A stretch of DNA of 64,000 bases from Clostridiaceae bacterium Marseille-Q4149 (GTDB lineage Bacteria > Bacteroidota > Bacteroidia > Bacteroidales > Bacteroidaceae), in contig CAVIQL010000001.1 in the NCBI GenBank assembly GCA_963644855.1, forward strand, positions 29,105 through 93,104, written 5' to 3'. The translations under genes were made by a program, and so were the position numbers. The notes under the pieces were generated by a model. The model was given only the letters and a program-made list of their open reading frames with translations. It made no database searches and was not told the DNA's origin. Below, one piece after another: positions 1 through 64,000 of the stretch; within the stretch, counting starts at the first letter, position 1; each line of letters opens with the position of its first letter.

Positions 1-343
1 GTTGCTGCTCGTCGTTTGAAAGGTTGTGGAAATAACGGTTCTCAAACATGAAATCGCCGTTCACGTATTGGCATATAGATATTGTGCGCTGCTGTCCGTC
101 GAGCACTTCATAGGGAACGGGGTTGTCGGCATCGCGTTCCACCCAATACATCACGTTTAGCGGAAAATTGTTTCTCACAGTGTGTATCACGGCATCGCGT
201 TGCTTTTCTTTGTAAATGAATTCGCGTTGATAGGGTGGGCGTATGTCGAGTTTTCCGCCGTATCCTCTTACGCCTTGCTCGTTGTTGTCTTCATAGTTTT
301 TCGTTAATTCGCGAATTGTAATCTGATGCAGTTCTATGTTCAT
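1..343 (-). CDS. DUF262 (ParB/Srx-like, GmrSD-N-type) domain protein, copy A; N-terminal part only, gene runs off the window start
   Basis: Absent from the ORF track because there is no stop in the window. Reverse translation from the ATG at 343-341 gives MNIELHQITIRELTKNYEDNNEQGVRGYGGKLDIRPPYQREFIYKEKQRDAVIHTV...YEVLDGQQRTISICQYV. This is co-linear with the 60233..61357 protein and includes the DGQQR motif. Confidence 0.8.
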   Translation of the reverse strand, partial: MNIELHQITIRELTKNYEDNNEQGVRGYGGKLDIRPPYQREFIYKEKQRDAVIHTVRNNFPLNVMYWVERDADNPVPYEVLDGQQRTISICQYVNGDFMFENRYFHNLSNDEQQ

Positions 344-379: not shown

Positions 380-1411
380 TTATTTCTTACGTCGAATGAA
401 CAGTCTTTTGTAAGTGTTGTTTCCTTTGATAGATGGATTCATATTGGTGGCTTTATCCCATTCTGCAGGTCTTCCGTAATTATAAGAACAACCGAGGATT
501 TCAAATTGTTCGGGATTGTGTTTATGTAGGAACGAAACTGGTACGCCCATTACTCCATAGTAATCGCAAGGAATGTCTTCTATCTTTTTAATATGTATGG
601 CATCGTAGTTGTCGTATTTGGGATATTTTTCGGGCGAGTAGTTCTTATATAATATGAGTTCTTCGTTGCGTTTGGGAATCTCAAGATTGGTAAACCAACA
701 TATGTTGCCGAAACTTCTCCACCTTTTGCCGTTTTTATCAATCCACGATCTTGTTTTTCTGTCTGGGTAATCGTCGGGAACCCTGAAAGCTTGGTCGCCA
801 TATTTATAGCCAAGCCAAATTTGGTTGTTGTAGATAAAAGGAAAGATATCTTTATATGTTGTTTTGTTTATGTCTCCCATTATTATAAACTTCTTGTTGT
901 ATTTCATAAGTAGCGGCACGTATTCCCGAAATAGGGTGAACGGCGGATTTGTTACCACAATGTCGGCTTCTTTTAGGAATTCCACGCACTCGGGCGAACT
1001 AAAATCGCCGTTGCCTTTGAGAAGTTTTACCACGTGCTTGTCTTGCGACAAAAGCAGTTTGACATCTTCGAGGTCTATTCGCCCGTCGCCGTTATAGTCT
1101 TTCATTTCGGTAATCTCCACCTTGTAGGCTTTTCGCGGGGTTTGCTTCATTTCTTCAAACAAAAACTCATTGCCCGATATTGGTGAGCCGTTGTAGCAGG
1201 TGGATATGAGTTTTTTCAAACCAAACTCGTTGAAATTCGCTGCGAAATACTTGAAAAAGTTGCTTTCATAGGGGTCGTCGCAATTACACAGAATGGTTTT
1301 GCCCGCAAAGTGTTTACGGTAGTGTTTCAATTCGTTTTCAATGTCGGGCATTTGGGTGTAAAACTCGTTCTGCTTGGTTCGCTTTGCCACATTAAGGTTC
1401 TTGTTTGCCAT
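380..1411 (-). CDS. EcoRI-methylase-like N6-adenine DNA methyltransferase, copy A
   Basis: 343-aa ORF. N-terminal EFYTQ...GKTILCNCDDPYESNFFKYF block and VVTNPPF (NPPF catalytic motif). Co-linear paralog of 61430..62470. Confidence 0.8.
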   Translation of the reverse strand: MANKNLNVAKRTKQNEFYTQMPDIENELKHYRKHFAGKTILCNCDDPYESNFFKYFAANFNEFGLKKLISTCYNGSPISGNEFLFEEMKQTPRKAYKVEITEMKDYNGDGRIDLEDVKLLLSQDKHVVKLLKGNGDFSSPECVEFLKEADIVVTNPPFTLFREYVPLLMKYNKKFIIMGDINKTTYKDIFPFIYNNQIWLGYKYGDQAFRVPDDYPDRKTRSWIDKNGKRWRSFGNICWFTNLEIPKRNEELILYKNYSPEKYPKYDNYDAIHIKKIEDIPCDYYGVMGVPVSFLHKHNPEQFEILGCSYNYGRPAEWDKATNMNPSIKGNNTYKRLFIRRKK

Positions 1412-1742
1412 AAATGATTGATAGTTTTAACGAGCACCGACTATCAATCACGCCAAGACACAATAAAAGCGTGATGCTCTTATTGCGTTTAGCTTAGGGG
1501 CAGCGTAGGATGGAAACCCCTTCCTCTCAAAATAAGCGCACCACGCCATGCGACGTGAGCATTGCTTATACGAGAGGAAAGGTGTACCGCTACGGATCAC
1601 CTTTCACATATTATTTCTGTGTTGTTTATTTCCAAATAGTTTCCTACGCTTTTGGCTAAACGCGAAATAATAGCGAATGCTTTTTTAGTTTTTACCGATA
1701 AGACAGCGAAGCGCGCAAACTGCAAAGTGTGCGTTGTTCGCC
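1412..1742 (-). ncRNA. Conserved structured 5' leader / candidate ncRNA of methyltransferase operon A
   Basis: No conserved ORF. Runs of 31 nt (1652-1682) and 13 nt (1605-1617) are identical to copy B (62705-62735, 62658-62670). Helices 1521-1528/1572-1579 and 1532-1537/1564-1569 are replaced by different but still complementary sequences in copy B. Hairpin 1415-1425/1440-1450 ends 3 nt before the start codon. Confidence 0.55.
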
Positions 1743-1747
1743 ATTTG

Positions 1748-1755
1748 CAAATATA
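1748..1755 (-). promoter_or_regulatory. -7 promoter box TATATTTG (Bacteroidetes TAnnTTTG consensus) for operon A
   Basis: The minus strand reads ...atatttgcggaaatcatTATATTTGcaaatgg. The same block is conserved upstream of copy B. There is no properly spaced -33 TTTG. Confidence 0.5.
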
Positions 1756-5584: not shown

Positions 5585-5680
5585 GTTTTTCTAATATCCG
5601 ATATTTTTTAAACAATGTCGGATATTTTTTAAATAATGTCAGACATTGTTTTTGCGATAAGCCTTATGTTTTTTGCAGAA
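5585..5680. repeat. Repeat family locus R3
   Basis: ctaATATCCGATATtttttaaacaATGTCGGATATtttttaaataATGTCAGACATtgtttttgcgataagcc. Confidence 0.8.
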
Positions 5681-28416: not shown

Positions 28417-28463
28417 AAAACCATATCCTATATCGATTTTCCGATATAGGATATGGTTTTTCT
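28417..28463 (+). terminator. Strong terminator of the OFOR operon
   Basis: Perfect 19-bp stem aaaaccatatcctatatcg / cgatataggatatggtttt (28417-28435 / 28442-28460) followed by a T-run. Confidence 0.75.
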
Positions 28464-28560
28464 AATGTCAGACCTTTTTTAAAAAAGGTCTGACATTATT
28501 TAAAAAAGGTCCGATATTAGAAAAACAAGATGCCTTGTTGTAAAAACAATGTTTTTTGCG
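28461..28560. repeat. Repeat family locus R7 (includes a 34-nt perfect palindrome at 28464-28497)
   Basis: aatgtcagaccttttttaaaaaaggtctgacattatttaaaaaaggtccgatattagaaaaacaagatgccttgttgtaaaaacaatg. Units are spaced exactly 21 nt. Confidence 0.85.
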
Positions 28561-35441: not shown

Positions 35442-36680
35442 ATGAGAAAAGCAGGCAATAGTAATAGAATTTTGGCGCTTGATATACTGCGCGGAATTAC
35501 CATAGCCGGAATGATTTTGGTAAACAATCCCGGCTCGTGGGGCTATATATTTACTCCGCTCGACCATGCAGAGTGGTTGGGGCTTACGCCCACCGATTTT
35601 GTTTTCCCGTTCTTTATGTTCATAATGGGAATAACCACTTACATATCTTTGCGCAAGTATAACTTCCAGGCGTCTGCCGTGGCGGTGAAAAAGATAGTGG
35701 TACGCACGGTGGTAATAATCCTTGTAGGGTCGTTCATCGGCTTTTTCGCGCATTTTTGTTACTATTGGAACAACGCTGATGCGCAACTCGGTTTTGGCGG
35801 ACAGTTTCTCGAAGCGCTCAACGTGTTTCCCACGCTTAGGTTTACTGGCGTGCTCCATCGCCTTGCCATTTGTTATTGCGTAGTGGCAATTCTTGCTCTT
35901 ACGGTGAAGCACAAAAGTTTTCCATGGATAATTGCCGGACTGTTTGTGGCGTATTTCATTGTGTTGCAATCCGCCAACGGCTATGCTTATGACGAGACTA
36001 ACATTTTGTCAATATTCGATCGCGCAATAATTCCCGTTGCCCATTTATATAATGACCATGGCATTGATCCCGAAGGACTTTTGAGCACAATTCCAAGCAT
36101 TGCCCATGTAATGATAGGCTTTGTTGTGGGACGAATGATGTTTGTTGAAAATAAACAAACGGATATCGAAAAAACAATGTCGGATATTATTTCAACAAAG
36201 TCCGATATTATTTCAAAAAGGTCCGATATTGTTCAAACGAAATTTGATATCGTTATGACACGATTGTTTGTCTTTGGAACAGCAATGCTAATCTCCGGAT
36301 TTTTATTGAGTTATGCCTGCCCCATAAGCAAGAAGATTTGGACACCGACCTTCTCCATGGTAACATGTGGCTTTGCCTGCATGGTTTTGGCACTACTCAT
36401 ATATATAATAGACAAGAAGGGAATAAAGAAATGGAGCGGATTTTTTGCCTCGTTCGGTGCCAACCCTCTTTTTCTCTACATAATGTCCGACGTGTTCGCA
36501 ATTCTGTTTAGCTGCATCAAGGTTTCGGGAATTAGCATACACGCCCATGTCTACAATATCCTCGTACCGTTGTTTGGCAATACGGGCGGGTCGTGCGTAT
36601 ATGCCATACTGTTTGTGATATTCAACTTCGCCGTTGTGGCTTATCCGCTTTATAAACGCAAAATCTACATTAAAATATAA
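35442..36680 (+). CDS. Heparan-alpha-glucosaminide N-acetyltransferase-like membrane acyltransferase (DUF5009/DUF1624 type)
   Basis: RILALDILRGITIAGMILVNNPGSW N-terminus and multiple TM helices. Start moved to ATG 35442. Contains an in-frame repeat insertion (see R9). Confidence 0.75.
   Translation: MRKAGNSNRILALDILRGITIAGMILVNNPGSWGYIFTPLDHAEWLGLTPTDFVFPFFMFIMGITTYISLRKYNFQASAVAVKKIVVRTVVIILVGSFIGFFAHFCYYWNNADAQLGFGGQFLEALNVFPTLRFTGVLHRLAICYCVVAILALTVKHKSFPWIIAGLFVAYFIVLQSANGYAYDETNILSIFDRAIIPVAHLYNDHGIDPEGLLSTIPSIAHVMIGFVVGRMMFVENKQTDIEKTMSDIISTKSDIISKRSDIVQTKFDIVMTRLFVFGTAMLISGFLLSYACPISKKIWTPTFSMVTCGFACMVLALLIYIIDKKGIKKWSGFFASFGANPLFLYIMSDVFAILFSCIKVSGISIHAHVYNILVPLFGNTGGSCVYAILFVIFNFAVVAYPLYKRKIYIKI
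36160..36256. repeat. Repeat family locus R9, located in frame inside the acyltransferase CDS
   Basis: Four 21-nt units (acaatgtcggatattatttca / acaaagtccgatattatttca / aaaaggtccgatattgttcaa / acgaaatttgatatcgttatg) translate to TMSDIIS TKSDIIS KRSDIVQ TKFDIVM. Confidence 0.8.
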
Positions 36681-39414: not shown

Positions 39415-39510
39415 GTCGTGAAAATAATATCCGACTTTGTTTGAAAAATATCCGACATTATTTAAAAAATATCGGACATTAGAAAAACGATATGCGCACA
39501 TTGTTTTAAG
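39415..39510. repeat. Repeat family locus R10
   Basis: atatccgactttgtttgaaaa / atatccgacattatttaaaaa / atatcggacattagaaaaacg / atatgcgcacattgtttt; four consecutive 21-nt units. Confidence 0.85.
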
Positions 39511-52011: not shown

Positions 52012-52112
52012 ACAATGTCCGATGTTTTTTAAAAAAGGTCTGATATTATTTGAAAAATACCTGACATTGTTTTTATAATATCCTATATAGTTTTTGTGAT
52101 AGTTTTTGTGAT
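52012..52112. repeat. Repeat family locus R13
   Basis: caatgtccgatgttttttaaaaaaggtctgatattatttgaaaaatacctgacattgtttttataatatcctatatagtttttgtg. Confidence 0.8.
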
Positions 52113-60232: not shown

Positions 60233-61357
60233 TTATCTTCCGCCTTTTCTCCGATTACATTCCCGGCACAACATTTGGCAGTTCTCCTCAATGGTGCGTC
60301 CGCCTTCGCGCCACGGAGTGATATGGTCGCCTTCCATGAATTCCATGTCGAGTTCTTTGCCGCAGATGGCGCACTTGTGGTTTTGTCTTTCCCATGCGGC
60401 AAGTTTTGTTTGCATATCAAAAACGCGCAGATCGAGATATCGTTCGTCGCCCGTGAGCACATAGGGAATTATTCCGCCGGGCTTTTGTATTTCGCTGTCT
60501 TTCATGAGCGCGGAAATCCGTTTGCCAATAGCCGAAACATCGAGTGTGTCTTCATGAAAACGGTCGTAGAAATAAGCCCAATCGAGTCCTTTCATAATCT
60601 TCTTGAAATGTTTCATGTCGAAGTTCGTAATGGCCCAGTTTAATACGTTTTGAAAATAGCTCCAAAGGTTGTTGGCGTTAGGGTCGTGCTGATGTTTCGC
60701 CATATATCCCACTATGGTTTGCCCGTGTCCCTCGCGCGTTTCGTGTTGTGCAATCCATTCGAGCGCTTTTTTCAGAAAATCCTGGCGGTTGGGCGTGCCG
60801 TTCACCAAATCTTTGCCCAAGCGATACGCGCCGCAGTTGTTTTTTGAAAAATGACGCTTTGCATCGCTCACAAAAGGGCCTGCATAGACAGCATTGTTTA
60901 TTTCCTGTTCGTTAAGAGGCTTTCCCGCTATGTTTATTGTTTTGAACCATTCCAATTTTTCCGAAGCTTCTCCCTCGCAGATATACACTGTGAGCGGATA
61001 GGTAAGTATTCGCTTTTGTATGTCGGCGGGTTGGTTGAAAAAGTTCTTGAACTCGAAACTGAATTTCCCCGCTACGTATTCGCAAATCGAGAGGGTGCGT
61101 TGCTGGCCGTCCATAACTTCGTAAGGACATTCGGCATCGTCGCTGCGCTTCACCCAATACATCACATTCAAAGGGTAGCCCTGCATCACAGTATTGATTA
61201 CGGCTTGCTGTTCTTTCTCATTATATATAAACTCACGCTGATAGGGCGGACGAATGTCGAGTTTGCCGTTGTATCCGCGCACTCCCTGTTCGTCGTTGTT
61301 GGAGTAGTCGCGCGTTATATCGCCAACGGTAACTTCTATCTGCTTTATGGTCATCAT
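60233..61357 (-). CDS. DUF262 (ParB/Srx-like, GmrSD-N-type) domain protein with a C-terminal HNH nuclease motif, copy B
   Basis: 374 aa. N-terminal RPPYQREFIY...VMDGQQRTLSI (DGQQR motif). C-terminal KCAICGKELD...GDHITPWREGGRTIEENCQMLCRECNRRKGG (HNH). Confidence 0.8.
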   Translation of the reverse strand: MMTIKQIEVTVGDITRDYSNNDEQGVRGYNGKLDIRPPYQREFIYNEKEQQAVINTVMQGYPLNVMYWVKRSDDAECPYEVMDGQQRTLSICEYVAGKFSFEFKNFFNQPADIQKRILTYPLTVYICEGEASEKLEWFKTINIAGKPLNEQEINNAVYAGPFVSDAKRHFSKNNCGAYRLGKDLVNGTPNRQDFLKKALEWIAQHETREGHGQTIVGYMAKHQHDPNANNLWSYFQNVLNWAITNFDMKHFKKIMKGLDWAYFYDRFHEDTLDVSAIGKRISALMKDSEIQKPGGIIPYVLTGDERYLDLRVFDMQTKLAAWERQNHKCAICGKELDMEFMEGDHITPWREGGRTIEENCQMLCRECNRRKGGR

Positions 61358-61429: not shown

Positions 61430-62470
61430 TTATTTTCTGCGGCGAATGAAAATCCGCTTGTAAATTCCTTTTCCATTAACAACTGGTGCGTCTCGTCTGG
61501 GAAAAGGAATCTCGTAGTCTTTAAGCATTCCGTCTCCTCCTCTATCTGTAGTCCAAATAATTTCAAATTGGTCGGGACAATATTTGTCGAGGAATGTGAT
61601 TGGCACGCCCATAACACCATCGTAATCGCAGGGAATGTCTGCTGTGCGGCTTACTTCGATAGCATTGTAATTATCATACCGAGGGTATTCGTCTGGAGAG
61701 TAATGGCATACCAAATCCAAGTAATCACTTCGCTTTGGTATCTCGAGGTTTGTAAACCACATCACTCCCGAAACTCTTATCATGCCTTTGCGATGGTCTC
61801 CTGCCGTAGCTTTGTCTTCGTAAGGCGACATAAAATGTGCGGCAGTGCCTTTGAAACCATATCCCAACCACAATTGATTGTTCTTGATATAGGGAAAGAT
61901 TTCCTTGTAAGTAATTGCGTTTTGATTTCCCACGATAATAAATTTCTTGTTGTGCTTCATGAGTTGCGATACATATTCGCGAAACAACGAAAAAGGCGGA
62001 TTTGTTACCACTATGTCGGCTTCTTTTAGAAGTTCCACGCATTCTGTGCTGCGGAAATCTCCTGTTTGCAGTGTGGAAATCACATTCCGATCGTTTTGCA
62101 ACAGATAGCGCACGTCCGACAAGTCAACGGCTCCGTCGCCATTGAGGTCTTTTACTTCCGTAATCTCAACCTTGTAAGCTATTTTCTTTGGTTCGCTGTC
62201 GAATTCCTCGAAATGTATCAACAATTCGTTGCCTTGCACCGGCGAACCGTTATAACAGGTGCAAATAAGCTTCTTCAAACCAAGCTGATTGAAGCGTAGC
62301 GCAAAATATTTGAAGAAATTGCTCTCGAAAGGGTCATCGCAGTTACACAGAATGGTTTTGCCGCGAAAATGTTGCCAATAATGTTGAAGTTCGCGCTCAA
62401 TGTCGACGAGTTGGGTGTAGAACTCGTCTTTTTTTGCCGTCTTTGCGGCACCAAGATGTTTGTTTGCCAT
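61430..62470 (-). CDS. EcoRI-methylase-like N6-adenine DNA methyltransferase, copy B
   Basis: MANKHLGAAKTAKKDEFYTQ...ILCNCDDPFESNFFKYF...VVTNPPF. Start moved to ATG 62470 by alignment with copy A. Confidence 0.8.
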   Translation of the reverse strand: MANKHLGAAKTAKKDEFYTQLVDIERELQHYWQHFRGKTILCNCDDPFESNFFKYFALRFNQLGLKKLICTCYNGSPVQGNELLIHFEEFDSEPKKIAYKVEITEVKDLNGDGAVDLSDVRYLLQNDRNVISTLQTGDFRSTECVELLKEADIVVTNPPFSLFREYVSQLMKHNKKFIIVGNQNAITYKEIFPYIKNNQLWLGYGFKGTAAHFMSPYEDKATAGDHRKGMIRVSGVMWFTNLEIPKRSDYLDLVCHYSPDEYPRYDNYNAIEVSRTADIPCDYDGVMGVPITFLDKYCPDQFEIIWTTDRGGDGMLKDYEIPFPRRDAPVVNGKGIYKRIFIRRRK

Positions 62471-62790
62471 AGCAGACCGATAGTTTATAGCCGCTATCAA
62501 TCCGCTAAAACGCAAAAAAGGCGTGTGCCTCTTATCGCGTTTAGCACGGGGCGAGCCTCGGAATGGAGCCCCAGTCTATTTATAAGAATGCAGCACGCCT
62601 ATAGCGTGGGCATTGCATTATATAAATAGAACAGAGGTTCTCACACGAGCCGCCTGTCACATATTATTTCCGTGCTTGTTATTCCAATTGAGTTTCCGAG
62701 GCTCTTGGCTAAACGCGAAATAATAGCGAATGCTTATGATTTTACCAAAAAGATATCGCGGGATAGATCTCTAAGACCATATCTTTCCGC
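62471..62790 (-). ncRNA. Conserved structured 5' leader / candidate ncRNA of methyltransferase operon B
   Basis: Same architecture as 1412-1742. Helices: 62575-62583/62622-62630, 62587-62591/62610-62614, 62594-62598/62604-62608, 62662-62670/62717-62725, 62536-62545/62708-62717. Start-codon hairpin 62470-62483/62494-62507, whose three mismatches become G-U pairs only on the minus strand. Confidence 0.55.
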
Positions 62791-62796
62791 TATTTG

Positions 62797-62804
62797 CAAA
62801 AATA
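62797..62804 (-). promoter_or_regulatory. -7 promoter box TATTTTTG for operon B
   Basis: The minus strand reads ...atatttcgggaaatcgcTATTTTTGcaaatagc, homologous to the block upstream of copy A. Confidence 0.5.
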
Positions 62805-62870: not shown

Positions 62871-62915
62871 TAAAAACAAAACCAGCCTCACAACAGGAAT
62901 GTGGGGCTGGTTTTT
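62871..62915. terminator. Hairpin terminator downstream of the threonine aldolase gene (bidirectional shape)
   Basis: ccagcctcaca / tgtggggctgg stem (62882-62892 / 62900-62910, one non-Watson-Crick pair), flanked by an A-rich run and a T-run. Confidence 0.6.
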
Positions 62916-62931: not shown

Positions 62932-63025
62932 CAAAAACAATGTCTGATATTTTTTTAATAATGTCAGACATTATTTAAAAAAGGTCGGATATTATTTAAA
63001 CGATATGGCTTATTGTTTTTGTGAT
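62932..63025. repeat. Repeat family locus R15
   Basis: caATGTCTGATATttttttaataATGTCAGACATtatttaaaaaaGGTCGGATATtatttaaacgatatggcttattgtttttgtg. Confidence 0.8.
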
Positions 63026-63037
63026 GTAGTTTGTGCT

Positions 63038-64000
63038 TTATTTAAGTGCCGCTTTTATGTCGGCCACAAGCGTTGCTACATCTTCTTCTGTGGTATCAAA
63101 CGAAGTTACAAATCTTATTTCCTTGATGTTTTCGTCCCAATAAAAAAACTTTTGCTTCTTTTCCAATTCTTCCGCCGCTTTGGGTGGCATGGTAAGAAAC
63201 AATTGGTTGCTTTCGGTGGGCTGCATGAAATGTATTTCGGGTATTTGGTCGAGGGCGTTGCGTAGAATTTCTGCCATGCGGTTTGCGTGGCGTGCGTTGC
63301 GCAACCAAAGTTGCCCGGTCATGTATGCTGTGAATTGACAAGCAAGGAAGCGTTGTTTCGATGCCAGTTGTGCGCTTTGCTTGCGTATGAATACGGAGTG
63401 TTTCTTCAAATCGTCGTTCAAAACCACTACGCATTCGCCAATCATAAGTCCGTTTTTGGTTCCTCCAAAACTCACAACGTCTATACCGCAATCGCGTGTC
63501 AATTCTTTCAGTCCCGTATTGAGAGCTGCGGCAGCGTTTGCCAATCGTGCGCCGTCCATATGTACATACATTCCGTGGCTATGGGCGAGGGTAGTGATGG
63601 CTTTTAGTTCTTCGGGCTTGTAAACCGTTCCCATTTCGCTGCATTGCGAAATGTATATAGCCGTTGGCTGTGAATGGTGTTGCTCTCCTATTCCAACGAT
63701 GTAGGGCTTTATGAGCGCGGCACTGAGTTTTCCGTCGGGTGTGGGGATTGTTTTTATCGCTGCGCCTGTCATCTTTCCCGGTGCGCCGCATTCGTCAACA
63801 ACTATATGGGCAGTTTCTGCACAGAGAATGAGTCCCCACGATTGGGTACACAATTCCAGCGCAAGACAATTGCTGCCCGTGCCGTTGAAAGTGAACAATA
63901 CTTGTGTGCCTCCGCCAAAAGCGTTGTCGATAGCCTTTTCTGCTTCTTCCGACCACTGATCTTCTCCGTATCCCACGGCGTGGTCTTTATTCGCTTTCAC
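63038..64000 (-). CDS. ltaE: Low-specificity threonine aldolase / beta-eliminating lyase family protein (N-terminus beyond the window end)
   Basis: GTQVLFTFNGTGSNCLALE...HMDGARLANAA...SFGGTKNG (PLP-lysine region). The ORF is open to the window edge. Confidence 0.75.
   Translation of the reverse strand: MKANKDHAVGYGEDQWSEEAEKAIDNAFGGGTQVLFTFNGTGSNCLALELCTQSWGLILCAETAHIVVDECGAPGKMTGAAIKTIPTPDGKLSAALIKPYIVGIGEQHHSQPTAIYISQCSEMGTVYKPEELKAITTLAHSHGMYVHMDGARLANAAAALNTGLKELTRDCGIDVVSFGGTKNGLMIGECVVVLNDDLKKHSVFIRKQSAQLASKQRFLACQFTAYMTGQLWLRNARHANRMAEILRNALDQIPEIHFMQPTESNQLFLTMPPKAAEELEKKQKFFYWDENIKEIRFVTSFDTTEEDVATLVADIKAALK

Follow-up and report, generated by a model that had tools for sequence, protein, structure and literature searches.

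A shared leader ahead of two restriction-modification operons

The window analyzed here is a stretch of 64,000 nucleotides (nt) from Clostridiaceae bacterium Marseille-Q4149, placed by GTDB in the Bacteroidaceae (GenBank assembly GCA_963644855.1, contig CAVIQL010000001.1, positions 29,105 to 93,104 of the forward strand). Both of its ends carry a paralogous minus-strand gene pair, in which an EcoRI-family N6-adenine methyltransferase gene (PF13651) is followed by a gene for a GmrSD_N(DUF262)-HNH nuclease. The subject of this report is the conserved element in front of each methyltransferase gene, which we read as a large, structured leader RNA with the features of a switch. We refer to the pair at the low-numbered end of the window as copy A and to the other as copy B; all positions are collected in Table 1.

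In copy B, 72 nt separate the methyltransferase gene from the downstream nuclease gene. PADLOC Type II models match both proteins over their full length, the methyltransferase as MTase_II and the nuclease as REase_II (PDLC03418, E = 1e-120), and Pfam assigns them PF13651 and GmrSD_N/HNH, respectively. A methyltransferase therefore adjoins its predicted cognate endonuclease, the arrangement that defines Type II systems. Because the PADLOC models cover both proteins end to end, both pairs look like ordinary Type II restriction-modification pairs. A search for solved structures returned none for the methyltransferase and, for the nuclease, the HNH motif only.

Upstream of each leader is a -7 promoter box that fits TAnnTTTG, which we take to be the Bacteroides promoter consensus and which is our basis for calling these boxes. 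Transcription of copy B probably begins near 62790. The same box occurs 30-90 nt ahead of a conserved GCATT in 126 of 145 related loci, compared with 35 of 145 on the opposite strand. Since the box recurs at this position, the conserved element appears to be a 5' untranslated region (UTR) leader of about 320 nt that extends from the presumed start site to the ATG. The lists of open reading frames (ORFs) contain none of at least 40 amino acids on the gene strand between promoter and methyltransferase gene. Attenuation by an upstream ORF or leader peptide was considered and rejected, as the leaders share no ORF of constant placement or size (binned by start position and length, the commonest ORF is shared by at most 17 of 157 leaders).

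Related leaders in Bacteroidales

A protein-guided scan of one genome per species yielded 80 loci, all from Bacteroidales. The hosts include Prevotella, Segatella, Hallella, Muribaculaceae, Paludibacteraceae and others; the few Firmicutes-labelled bins among the loci are probably mis-binned contigs. In 51 loci the leader opens with a 22-nt motif that is practically invariant, even though the proteins are just 63-90% identical, and a profile search recovered the leader in most of the other loci of this set. Scanning metagenomes with a 20-nt motif gave at least 120 contigs, and an nhmmer profile search raised the collection to 166 full-length copies among 187 loci. Overall, the leader stands ahead of DNA methyltransferase and restriction genes in hundreds of Bacteroidales sequences from gut and rumen.

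Rfam 15 has no match in the window. Searching both leader regions at E-values up to 10 returned chance-level microRNA and small-RNA models far below the gathering threshold, and the leaders of 12 other loci had no Rfam 15 matches either. We rejected membership of a known RNA family (riboswitches, T-box, leaders, HEARO and so on), given that none scored at the gathering threshold. Literature on restriction-modification leader RNAs and on Prevotella transcriptome features was also searched, together with surveys of structured RNAs, and nothing relevant was found. To judge from these comparisons, the element belongs to a Bacteroidales family of large, structured leader RNAs that had not been catalogued before.

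Covariation supports a compact, pseudoknotted fold

A preliminary description of this DNA had proposed four pairings in the leader: (i) UAUUAUUUC with GAAAUAAUA; (ii) the adjacent GCGUUUAGC with the distant GCUAAACGC; (iii) a second partner for the 5' strand of a covarying helix; and (iv) a hairpin that buries the translation start region. Read on the minus-strand RNA, all four are present where it had placed them in both copies (eight segment pairs). Pairing (i) has 9 of 9 Watson-Crick pairs in each copy, pairing (ii) 9 of 9 in A and 10 of 10 in B, and pairing (iii) 8 of 9 in A and 6 of 6 in B. For pairing (iv), all 11 pairs form in A, where the 3' arm stops 3 nt before the ATG; in B, 11 Watson-Crick and three G-U pairs make up the 14, and the 3' arm reaches as far as the A of the ATG (62470). 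The interleaved strand order a, b, a', b' reported for pairings (i) and (ii) is also correct. Complementarity on this scale is unusual: perfect 9-mer inverted repeats number nine in the B leader and six in the A leader, against 0.16 and 0.23 in shuffled sequences. They are 25-55 times commoner in the leaders than in shuffles, and a fraction of at most 0.001 of 1000 shuffles matches the observed counts.

We then counted pairs by applying the structure derived from copy B to an alignment of 95 leaders that are mutually less than 86% identical. Over the whole structure 94.5% of cells are paired, compared with 33-42% when the partners are slid. None of 500 shuffles attains the observed pairing values, and 20 pairs have changes on both sides. 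Helix Hb, which corresponds to pairing (ii), closes the domain and has strong comparative support: it is 97.5% paired, with both-side changes at 6 of 9 pairs, one of which occurs as UA in 34 leaders, CG in 32, AU in 19 and GC in 3. Hairpin Hh (96.6% paired) has both-side changes at 2 of 5 pairs (one is GC:43, AU:32, GU:17), and the inner stem of Hg, CACGC/GCGUG, at 3 of 5 (93.6% paired; one is GC:69, AU:15). The He stem appears as CACA/UGUG, ACAA/UUGU or ACUC/GAGU in different homologs, and the Hf and Hg stems differ in sequence with complementarity always kept; the Hf and Hg region folds at -40.1 kcal/mol, compared with -23.1 kcal/mol for shuffles (134 leaders). Ahead of the domain, the place of the 5' hairpin P0 is taken in homologs by a hairpin of different sequence.

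Two long-range contacts join these helices. In the first, Hc, which was absent from the preliminary description, the loops of hairpins Hd and Hh pair with each other as a kissing-loop contact. Hc is 97.2% paired, with both-side changes at 5 of 8 pairs (for example CG:54/GC:36 and CG:49/AU:38), and the two copies in the window themselves differ in a compensatory manner, with GCGUAGGA/UCCUACGC in A and GCCUCGGA/UCCGAGGC in B. The second is pairing (i), a pseudoknot between the He loop and the 5' tail beside Hb. Its strands are almost invariant: 90.7% of cells are paired, there are no both-side changes and only G-U changes occur. The sole co-variation is a shift to UAUUAUUC with GAAUAAUA, one base fewer per strand, in five related sequences.

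With G-U pairs common and other combinations scarce, the fold is one of the sense strand, and so of RNA. The comparative data show a compact domain built on a six-way junction, with five hairpins closed by Hb, and a fold locked by the kissing-loop pair (7-8 base pairs, bp) and the pseudoknot between the He loop and the 5' segment. A structured 5' UTR domain backed by covariation, as expected of riboswitches in general, is thus found here, with the -7 box and the position of the ATG marking its location.

The hairpin of pairing (iv) lies 3' of this domain. It was kept in all 65 genome loci examined, with a loop of 10-35 nt and an arm that ends 0-11 nt ahead of the ATG. Its core, GAUUGAUAG/CUAUCAAUC, is 98.1% paired and includes three compensatory C-G cases.

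Natural variants occur at several loci. L022 (1229-1658) and L077 (3588-4012) have an insertion of about 65 nt right after Hd that is itself a hairpin (AAGATTG...CAATCTT), and L012, L014, L045, L047 and L071 have 20-25 nt inserted in Hf; these two positions evidently tolerate extra domains. In a natural deletion variant, L033 (3910-4001), only 73 nt from the beginning of the leader remain and run almost straight into the ATG region; the start hairpin and the greater part of the fold are missing. This locus could serve as a natural "leaderless" control.

Two segments have competing partners

Y1, the 3' strand of Hg, pairs with X1 within that hairpin and is also complementary to X2, which lies just 3' of Hb. 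The Y1:X2 duplex spans 15-17 bp. In 119 leaders its mean energy is -21.8 kcal/mol, and T makes up 5-8 of the 10 bases that follow. The alternative pairing (iii) is therefore real, but it proves to be the distal end of this longer duplex, which rivals the covarying hairpin. Both are present in homologs, where the preliminary description had expected their absence if its reading were wrong: Y1:X2 is 91.2% paired with both-side changes in 7 of 9 core pairs, and pairing (iii) is 84.8% paired with both-side changes in 5 of 6. The substitutions themselves are informative. In the 15 sequences with a C-to-U change in Y1, X1 changes from G to A in all 15, and X2 does the same in 7 and is left with a G-U pair in the remaining 8. 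X1 and X2 each follow the changes in Y1 and so both track it, though they cannot bind it simultaneously. In addition, Hb and Y1:X2 are unlikely to coexist, since their crossed topology leaves a linker of a single nucleotide.

The 5' segment, which contains UAUUAUUUC, also has more than one possible partner. Besides the He loop, its GCUAUUA(UUU) is complementary to GAUUGAUAG (UGAUAGC), the 5' arm of the start hairpin; this pairing, absent from the preliminary description, is 99.5% paired and was chosen by RNAalifold. Its GCAUU is complementary to AAUGC in X1 (97.9% paired). In the 95-leader alignment conservation is highest in the strands that have two partners, as a dual constraint predicts. 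The structural reading of the preliminary description, a pseudoknot together with mutually exclusive pairings, thus holds up against the comparative data. The choices of Y1 (X1 or X2) and of the 5' segment (He loop or start-hairpin arm) form the signature of a switch.

A U-rich run, likewise new, follows X2. A terminator scan made a terminator-like call at 62533 to 62516, where the local hairpin is weak (7 pairs, 3 of them G-C). The candidate for an intrinsic terminator in the window is either this weak local hairpin or the long-range Y1:X2 duplex followed by 5-8 T in 10 bases.

A second class of leader, found at 12 loci, follows the same plan with different sequences. It starts with AAGCGTTTGCTGTTATTCGGAA about 230 nt before the ATG (L008, L011, L015, L024, L027, L031, L032, L046, L060, L063 and L066). 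Class 2 has a kissing-type helix with covariation, a hairpin that overlaps the ATG, and its own 5' segment, which over 14 bp is complementary to the region at the start hairpin's 5' arm. Where class 1 has X2 and the U-run, class 2 has a clean, compact hairpin of 7-12 bp with a run of 5-7 T. L064 represents a third, intermediate variant that keeps the 5'-3' complementarity with an exchange of G-C to A-U. Mutually exclusive pairings of the kind found in riboswitch expression platforms are thus present in class 1, in which X1:Y1 and Y1:X2 both covary and the 5' segment has dual complementarity, and class 2 is alike.

A candidate attenuator and translational gate

We think it probable, though well short of certain, that the leader acts in cis on restriction-modification operons, as a riboswitch-like attenuator and as a gate on translation. 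If the compact domain formed co-transcriptionally, X1 would hold Y1, no terminator-like duplex would arise ahead of the U-run, and transcription would read through into the methyltransferase gene. Otherwise X2 would take Y1 and create a long duplex before the U-run, which we would read as a terminator by analogy with class 2. The second control point would be translation. The Bacteroidetes phylum generally lacks Shine-Dalgarno pairing, and the start hairpin, located inside the ribosome footprint, would limit initiation; a released 5' segment could capture the 5' arm of the hairpin and open it. Candidate signals are a small molecule such as S-adenosylmethionine (SAM) or S-adenosylhomocysteine (SAH), a host protein or RNA, and folding kinetics. 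What the sequences show is the conserved fold, its covariation, the dual complementarities, the location in the 5' UTR and the association with these genes; we infer that the pairings alternate in vivo, which state is "on", that termination takes place at the U-run and that some signal shifts the balance.

For copy B, the predicted energy of the compact state with the start hairpin closed is -107.0 kcal/mol plus pseudoknot terms, compared with -91.7 kcal/mol for the open state and -116.3 kcal/mol for the unconstrained minimum. In this model the default state is probably one of low expression. The same energies also fit another explanation, in which the UTR folds once and constitutively damps translation or stabilizes the mRNA, and its extra complementarities are tertiary contacts or by-products. 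A closed compact fold that is by far the most stable predicted state is what such a static leader would have, low steady expression would suit restriction-modification genes that are potentially toxic, and the invariant pairings offer no covariation evidence for switching. Against it, X1 and X2 both follow Y1 although they cannot bind it together, Y1:X2 and Hb are hard to combine sterically, conservation peaks in the strands with two partners, and the sister class has a clean terminator inside its leader. We consider a static leader unlikely.

Several points weigh against the attenuator and gate that we favor. The closed compact state of copy B is predicted to be more stable than the open one by 15 kcal/mol or more, so that switching would call for a strong effector or for control by kinetics. 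Pairing (i) and the pairing of the 5' segment with GAUUGAUAG are both invariant, which puts them beyond a covariation test within class 1. The loop of the class 1 "terminator" would hold an 85-nt structured insert, which is unusual, and the local hairpin before the U-run is weak, with a mean of -6 kcal/mol. The two levels do not fit one simple two-state model, because the read-through and translation-open states, as we assign them, use opposite conformations. Finally, two helices expected in the compact state were rejected for want of support (76.8% paired, with 429 of 500 shuffles as high): X2:Y2, in which CACGC would pair with a GCGTG ahead of the start hairpin, and Hk, in which AUAAGAG would pair with a U/C run.

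The leader precedes at least five types of gene

To ask which genes the leader serves, we used 96 metagenome loci with a full leader and at least 900 nt of downstream sequence. The first gene encodes an EcoRI-family methyltransferase at 74 of the 96, and these are merely 33-77% identical to that of the window (median 46%), yet the 5' motif in front of them is invariant. Other proteins with an (N/D/S)PP(Y/F/W/H) motif follow at 9 loci and something else at 11. By Pfam, the other cargos include MethyltransfD12, N6_Mtase (one with HSDR_N_2), N6_N4_Mtase and RNase_T-BRCT. There are thus at least five Pfam-recognized types of first gene, namely four unrelated methyltransferase families and an exonuclease-BRCT type, with type I and IIG-like systems included. 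Because the same leader precedes all of these types, it is a general module for restriction-modification and defense genes and not a device of this one pair. At three loci (L083, L164 and L165), the leader stands before DEDDh (RNase_T) exonuclease and BRCT proteins, with no methyltransferase; these proteins may be another defense-type cargo.

Upstream flanks are mostly unrelated among 125 loci, which argues that the leader travels with its genes. A conserved integration hotspot was rejected on the same grounds. Phage origin was rejected as well: the exact motif occurs in viral contigs once for class 1 and never for class 2.

Six loci (L092, L181, L116, L137, L180 and L198) have just the first 40-110 nt of the leader, followed by unrelated sequence or another ORF, which suggests recombination breakpoints inside the leader. 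In L092 and L181 a related ORF without a Pfam match (MQEKWNQFVYDLCEAK in L092) begins 67-146 nt after the motif. Even ahead of unrelated proteins, the start context ATGGC(A/T)AA (Met-Ala-Asn/Lys) hardly varies (for example at 62459-62470, L144, L196 and L122); either the module boundary lies some codons into the gene, or the context is selected for initiation. L113 (81-1130) is degraded: its leader is followed by a fusion of methyltransferase codons 1-64 with the final 205 codons of the nuclease.

Two other readings were considered. One is that conservation acts on the DNA, with the inverted repeats bound by a protein at a recombination site, cassette boundary or operator. The joining of many different cargos to one leader would fit such a site, as would the loci that break off at differing points within it. 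The common G-U pairs in the helices, however, are A-C mismatches on the other strand, and the covariation of the kissing loops has no DNA-level rationale. The unrelated upstream flanks point to no shared hotspot, the invariant 5' motif is not palindromic, and a start-hairpin loop of 10-35 nt is ill-suited to a dimeric operator. This reading strikes us as very improbable.

The other is that the element is a stand-alone noncoding RNA that ends at the U-rich run and acts in trans, as a cofactor, decoy or antitoxin-like partner of defense proteins, with read-through being secondary. At about 290 nt, with multiple pseudoknots and a sequence conserved beyond that of the proteins, it resembles large noncoding RNAs more than typical leaders. 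The U-run after X2 in class 1 and the clean terminator of class 2 would provide its 3' end, and several loci have parts of the leader only. Nearly all loci, however, have no other promoter-like gap between the element and the ATG, and the start hairpin and the ATGGC context are both conserved as part of the same module. A shared protein partner is unlikely too, since the downstream proteins belong to unrelated families. We therefore regard a trans-acting RNA as quite unlikely and retain the cis-acting attenuator and gate as our preferred reading.

Features of the window

Two features lie outside the leader. In copy B only, a strong hairpin (CCAGCCTCACA...TGTGGGGCTGG, 62875-62915) is flanked by T-runs on both strands and is probably a bidirectional terminator of the upstream minus-strand gene at 63038-64000. 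No fewer than seven sites in the window, among them one just upstream of each leader promoter, have an intergenic repeat that is rich in A/T and consists of palindromic cores (AATGTCAGAC...GTCTGACATT) and direct repeats of TATCGGTTATT. We rejected the AATGTCAGAC/TATCGGTTATT repeats as part of the leader: they are a genome-specific intergenic repeat that is not in any related locus.

Table 1. Positions of genes, promoter boxes, leader elements and repeats (window coordinates).
Feature	Copy	Position	Strand	Basis or remark
EcoRI-family N6-adenine methyltransferase gene	B	61430-62470	-	Pfam PF13651, E = 2e-144; PADLOC MTase_II, E = 3e-117
GmrSD_N(DUF262)-HNH nuclease gene	B	60233-61357	-	Pfam PF03235 and PF01844
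EcoRI-family methyltransferase gene	A	380-1411	-	Pfam
DUF262-HNH gene, truncated by window edge	A	2-343	-	Pfam
Bacteroidetes-type -7 box TATTTTTG (TAnnTTTG)	B	62797-62804	-	Read from sequence
-7 box	A	1748-1755	-	Read from sequence
P0, variable 5' hairpin right after presumed start (AAAGAUAU...AUAUCUUU)	B	62749-62786	-	Minimum-free-energy fold
5' segment (candidate switching segment) GCAUUCGCUAUUAUUUC, most invariant stretch of the family	B	62717-62733	-	Invariant alignment columns
Hb 5' strand GCGUUUAGC, pairing (ii), closes multi-helix domain	B	62708-62716	-	Pairs with 62537-62545
Hb 3' strand GCUAAACGC	B	62537-62545	-	Covariation counts
Hd hairpin (CAAGA...UCAAUUG)	B	62685-62707	-	Stem covariation judged by eye
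Hd loop GCCUCGGA, 5' half of kissing interaction Hc	B	62695-62702	-	Covariation
He hairpin, CAC-GGAAAUAAUAU-GUG	B	62658-62674	-	Pairing check and covariation counts
He loop GAAAUAAUA, pseudoknot with 5' segment	B	62662-62670	-	Pairing check
Hf hairpin, variable stem; loop with conserved YCGUAUG-like motif	B	62635-62655	-	Folds in homologs
Hg long hairpin; hypervariable outer stem 62622-62630 with 62575-62583	B	62575-62630	-	Covariation and folding
X1 AAUGCAAUGCCCACGC, within Hg	B	62604-62619	-	
Y1 GGCGUGCUGCAUUCUUAU, Hg 3' strand	B	62582-62599	-	
Hh hairpin, GGGGC...GCCCC	B	62548-62572	-	Covariation
Hh loop UCCGAGGC, 3' half of kissing interaction	B	62555-62562	-	Covariation
X2 AUAAGAGGCACACGCC	B	62520-62535	-	Candidate terminator or alternative-fold strand
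U-rich run after X2	B	62507-62519	-	Sequence
Start-proximal hairpin UAGCGGAUUGAUAG...CUAUCGGUCUGCUA, pairing (iv)	B	62470-62507	-	Last base is A of ATG
Whole leader	A	1412-1755	-	Same element as B
5' segment	A	1664-1680	-	
Hb	A	1655-1663 with 1485-1493	-	
Kissing strands	A	1642-1649 with 1503-1510	-	
He	A	1605-1621	-	
Y1	A	1531-1547	-	
X2	A	1469-1484	-	
U-rich run	A	1455-1468	-	
Start hairpin	A	1440-1450 with 1415-1425	-	
A/T-rich repeat sites		1838-1900, 5592-5663, 28463-28519, 36170-36240, 39422-39480, 52019-52074, 62935-63010		Sequence

Relation to known control systems

Riboswitch and T-box leaders work through competing terminator/antiterminator or sequestrator pairings. The leader resembles them in its 5' UTR location, its conserved and covarying multi-helix candidate sensor domain closed by a P1-like helix, its pseudoknot and kissing-loop contacts, the strand shared by two mutually exclusive helices, the U-run after the alternative helix and the sequestered start region. 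As with the T-box, a single family of leaders is shared by many genes that differ but have one functional theme in common. In contrast, it matches no Rfam family. It is also larger than most riboswitches, at about 290-320 nt with a six-way junction, and it serves DNA methyltransferases and restriction systems instead of metabolic genes or transporters.

Restriction-modification systems are controlled by C proteins, methyltransferase autoregulation and short antisense RNAs. C-protein circuits, which control Type II systems, are likewise dedicated devices placed before horizontally moving restriction-modification genes. Here, neither a C gene nor a conserved small ORF is found in or before the leader (157 leaders; the neighbors were not scanned with Pfam for helix-turn-helix domains), and control would instead reside in RNA folding. 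The preliminary description had suggested that RNA takes the place of a C protein in timing the establishment of methylase and nuclease. That functional reading fits only in part: both genes share one leader, which by itself cannot delay either of them relative to the other, and differential timing is left unexplained.

Capsular polysaccharide loci of Bacteroides have long 5' UTRs that are read through with the help of UpxY (NusG-like) antiterminators. The likeness is that of a long leader in Bacteroidales in which premature termination can be overcome. The UpxY system, however, depends on a locus-specific protein encoded by the first gene, and no such gene is present here, where the leader also has an elaborate conserved fold.

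EcoRI and Eco29kI are controlled by short antisense transcripts or internal promoters inside coding regions. Control of a Type II operon at the level of RNA or transcription is common to these systems and, if our reading is right, to the leader; unlike them, it is a large, conserved and folded element common to unrelated systems. For Eco29kI, control by antisense RNA and promoter interference has been described (PMC3113576). The leader described here matches none of the compared systems and appears to be new both as a class of structured regulatory leader and in its gene association. To our knowledge, no large, conserved, pseudoknotted leader common to unrelated methyltransferase families has been described before.

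At about 290 nt, and with at least one pseudoknot besides its kissing loop, the leader is a good candidate for structure determination, and it would provide a practical marker for defense operons in Bacteroidales metagenomes. It is possible, though we hold it doubtful, that a new class of sensor RNA couples many restriction-modification and defense operons of gut and rumen Bacteroidales to one common signal. That signal could be the supply of SAM or SAH, which every methyltransferase served requires, or a cue of infection or DNA entry. If the leader were such a sensor, all the restriction systems of a cell would come under one RNA module. Should it prove to be a switch, what Prevotella and Segatella sense to tune all their restriction systems becomes a testable question, and the answer would bear on phage defense, gene flow within the gut microbiome and how tractable these organisms are genetically.

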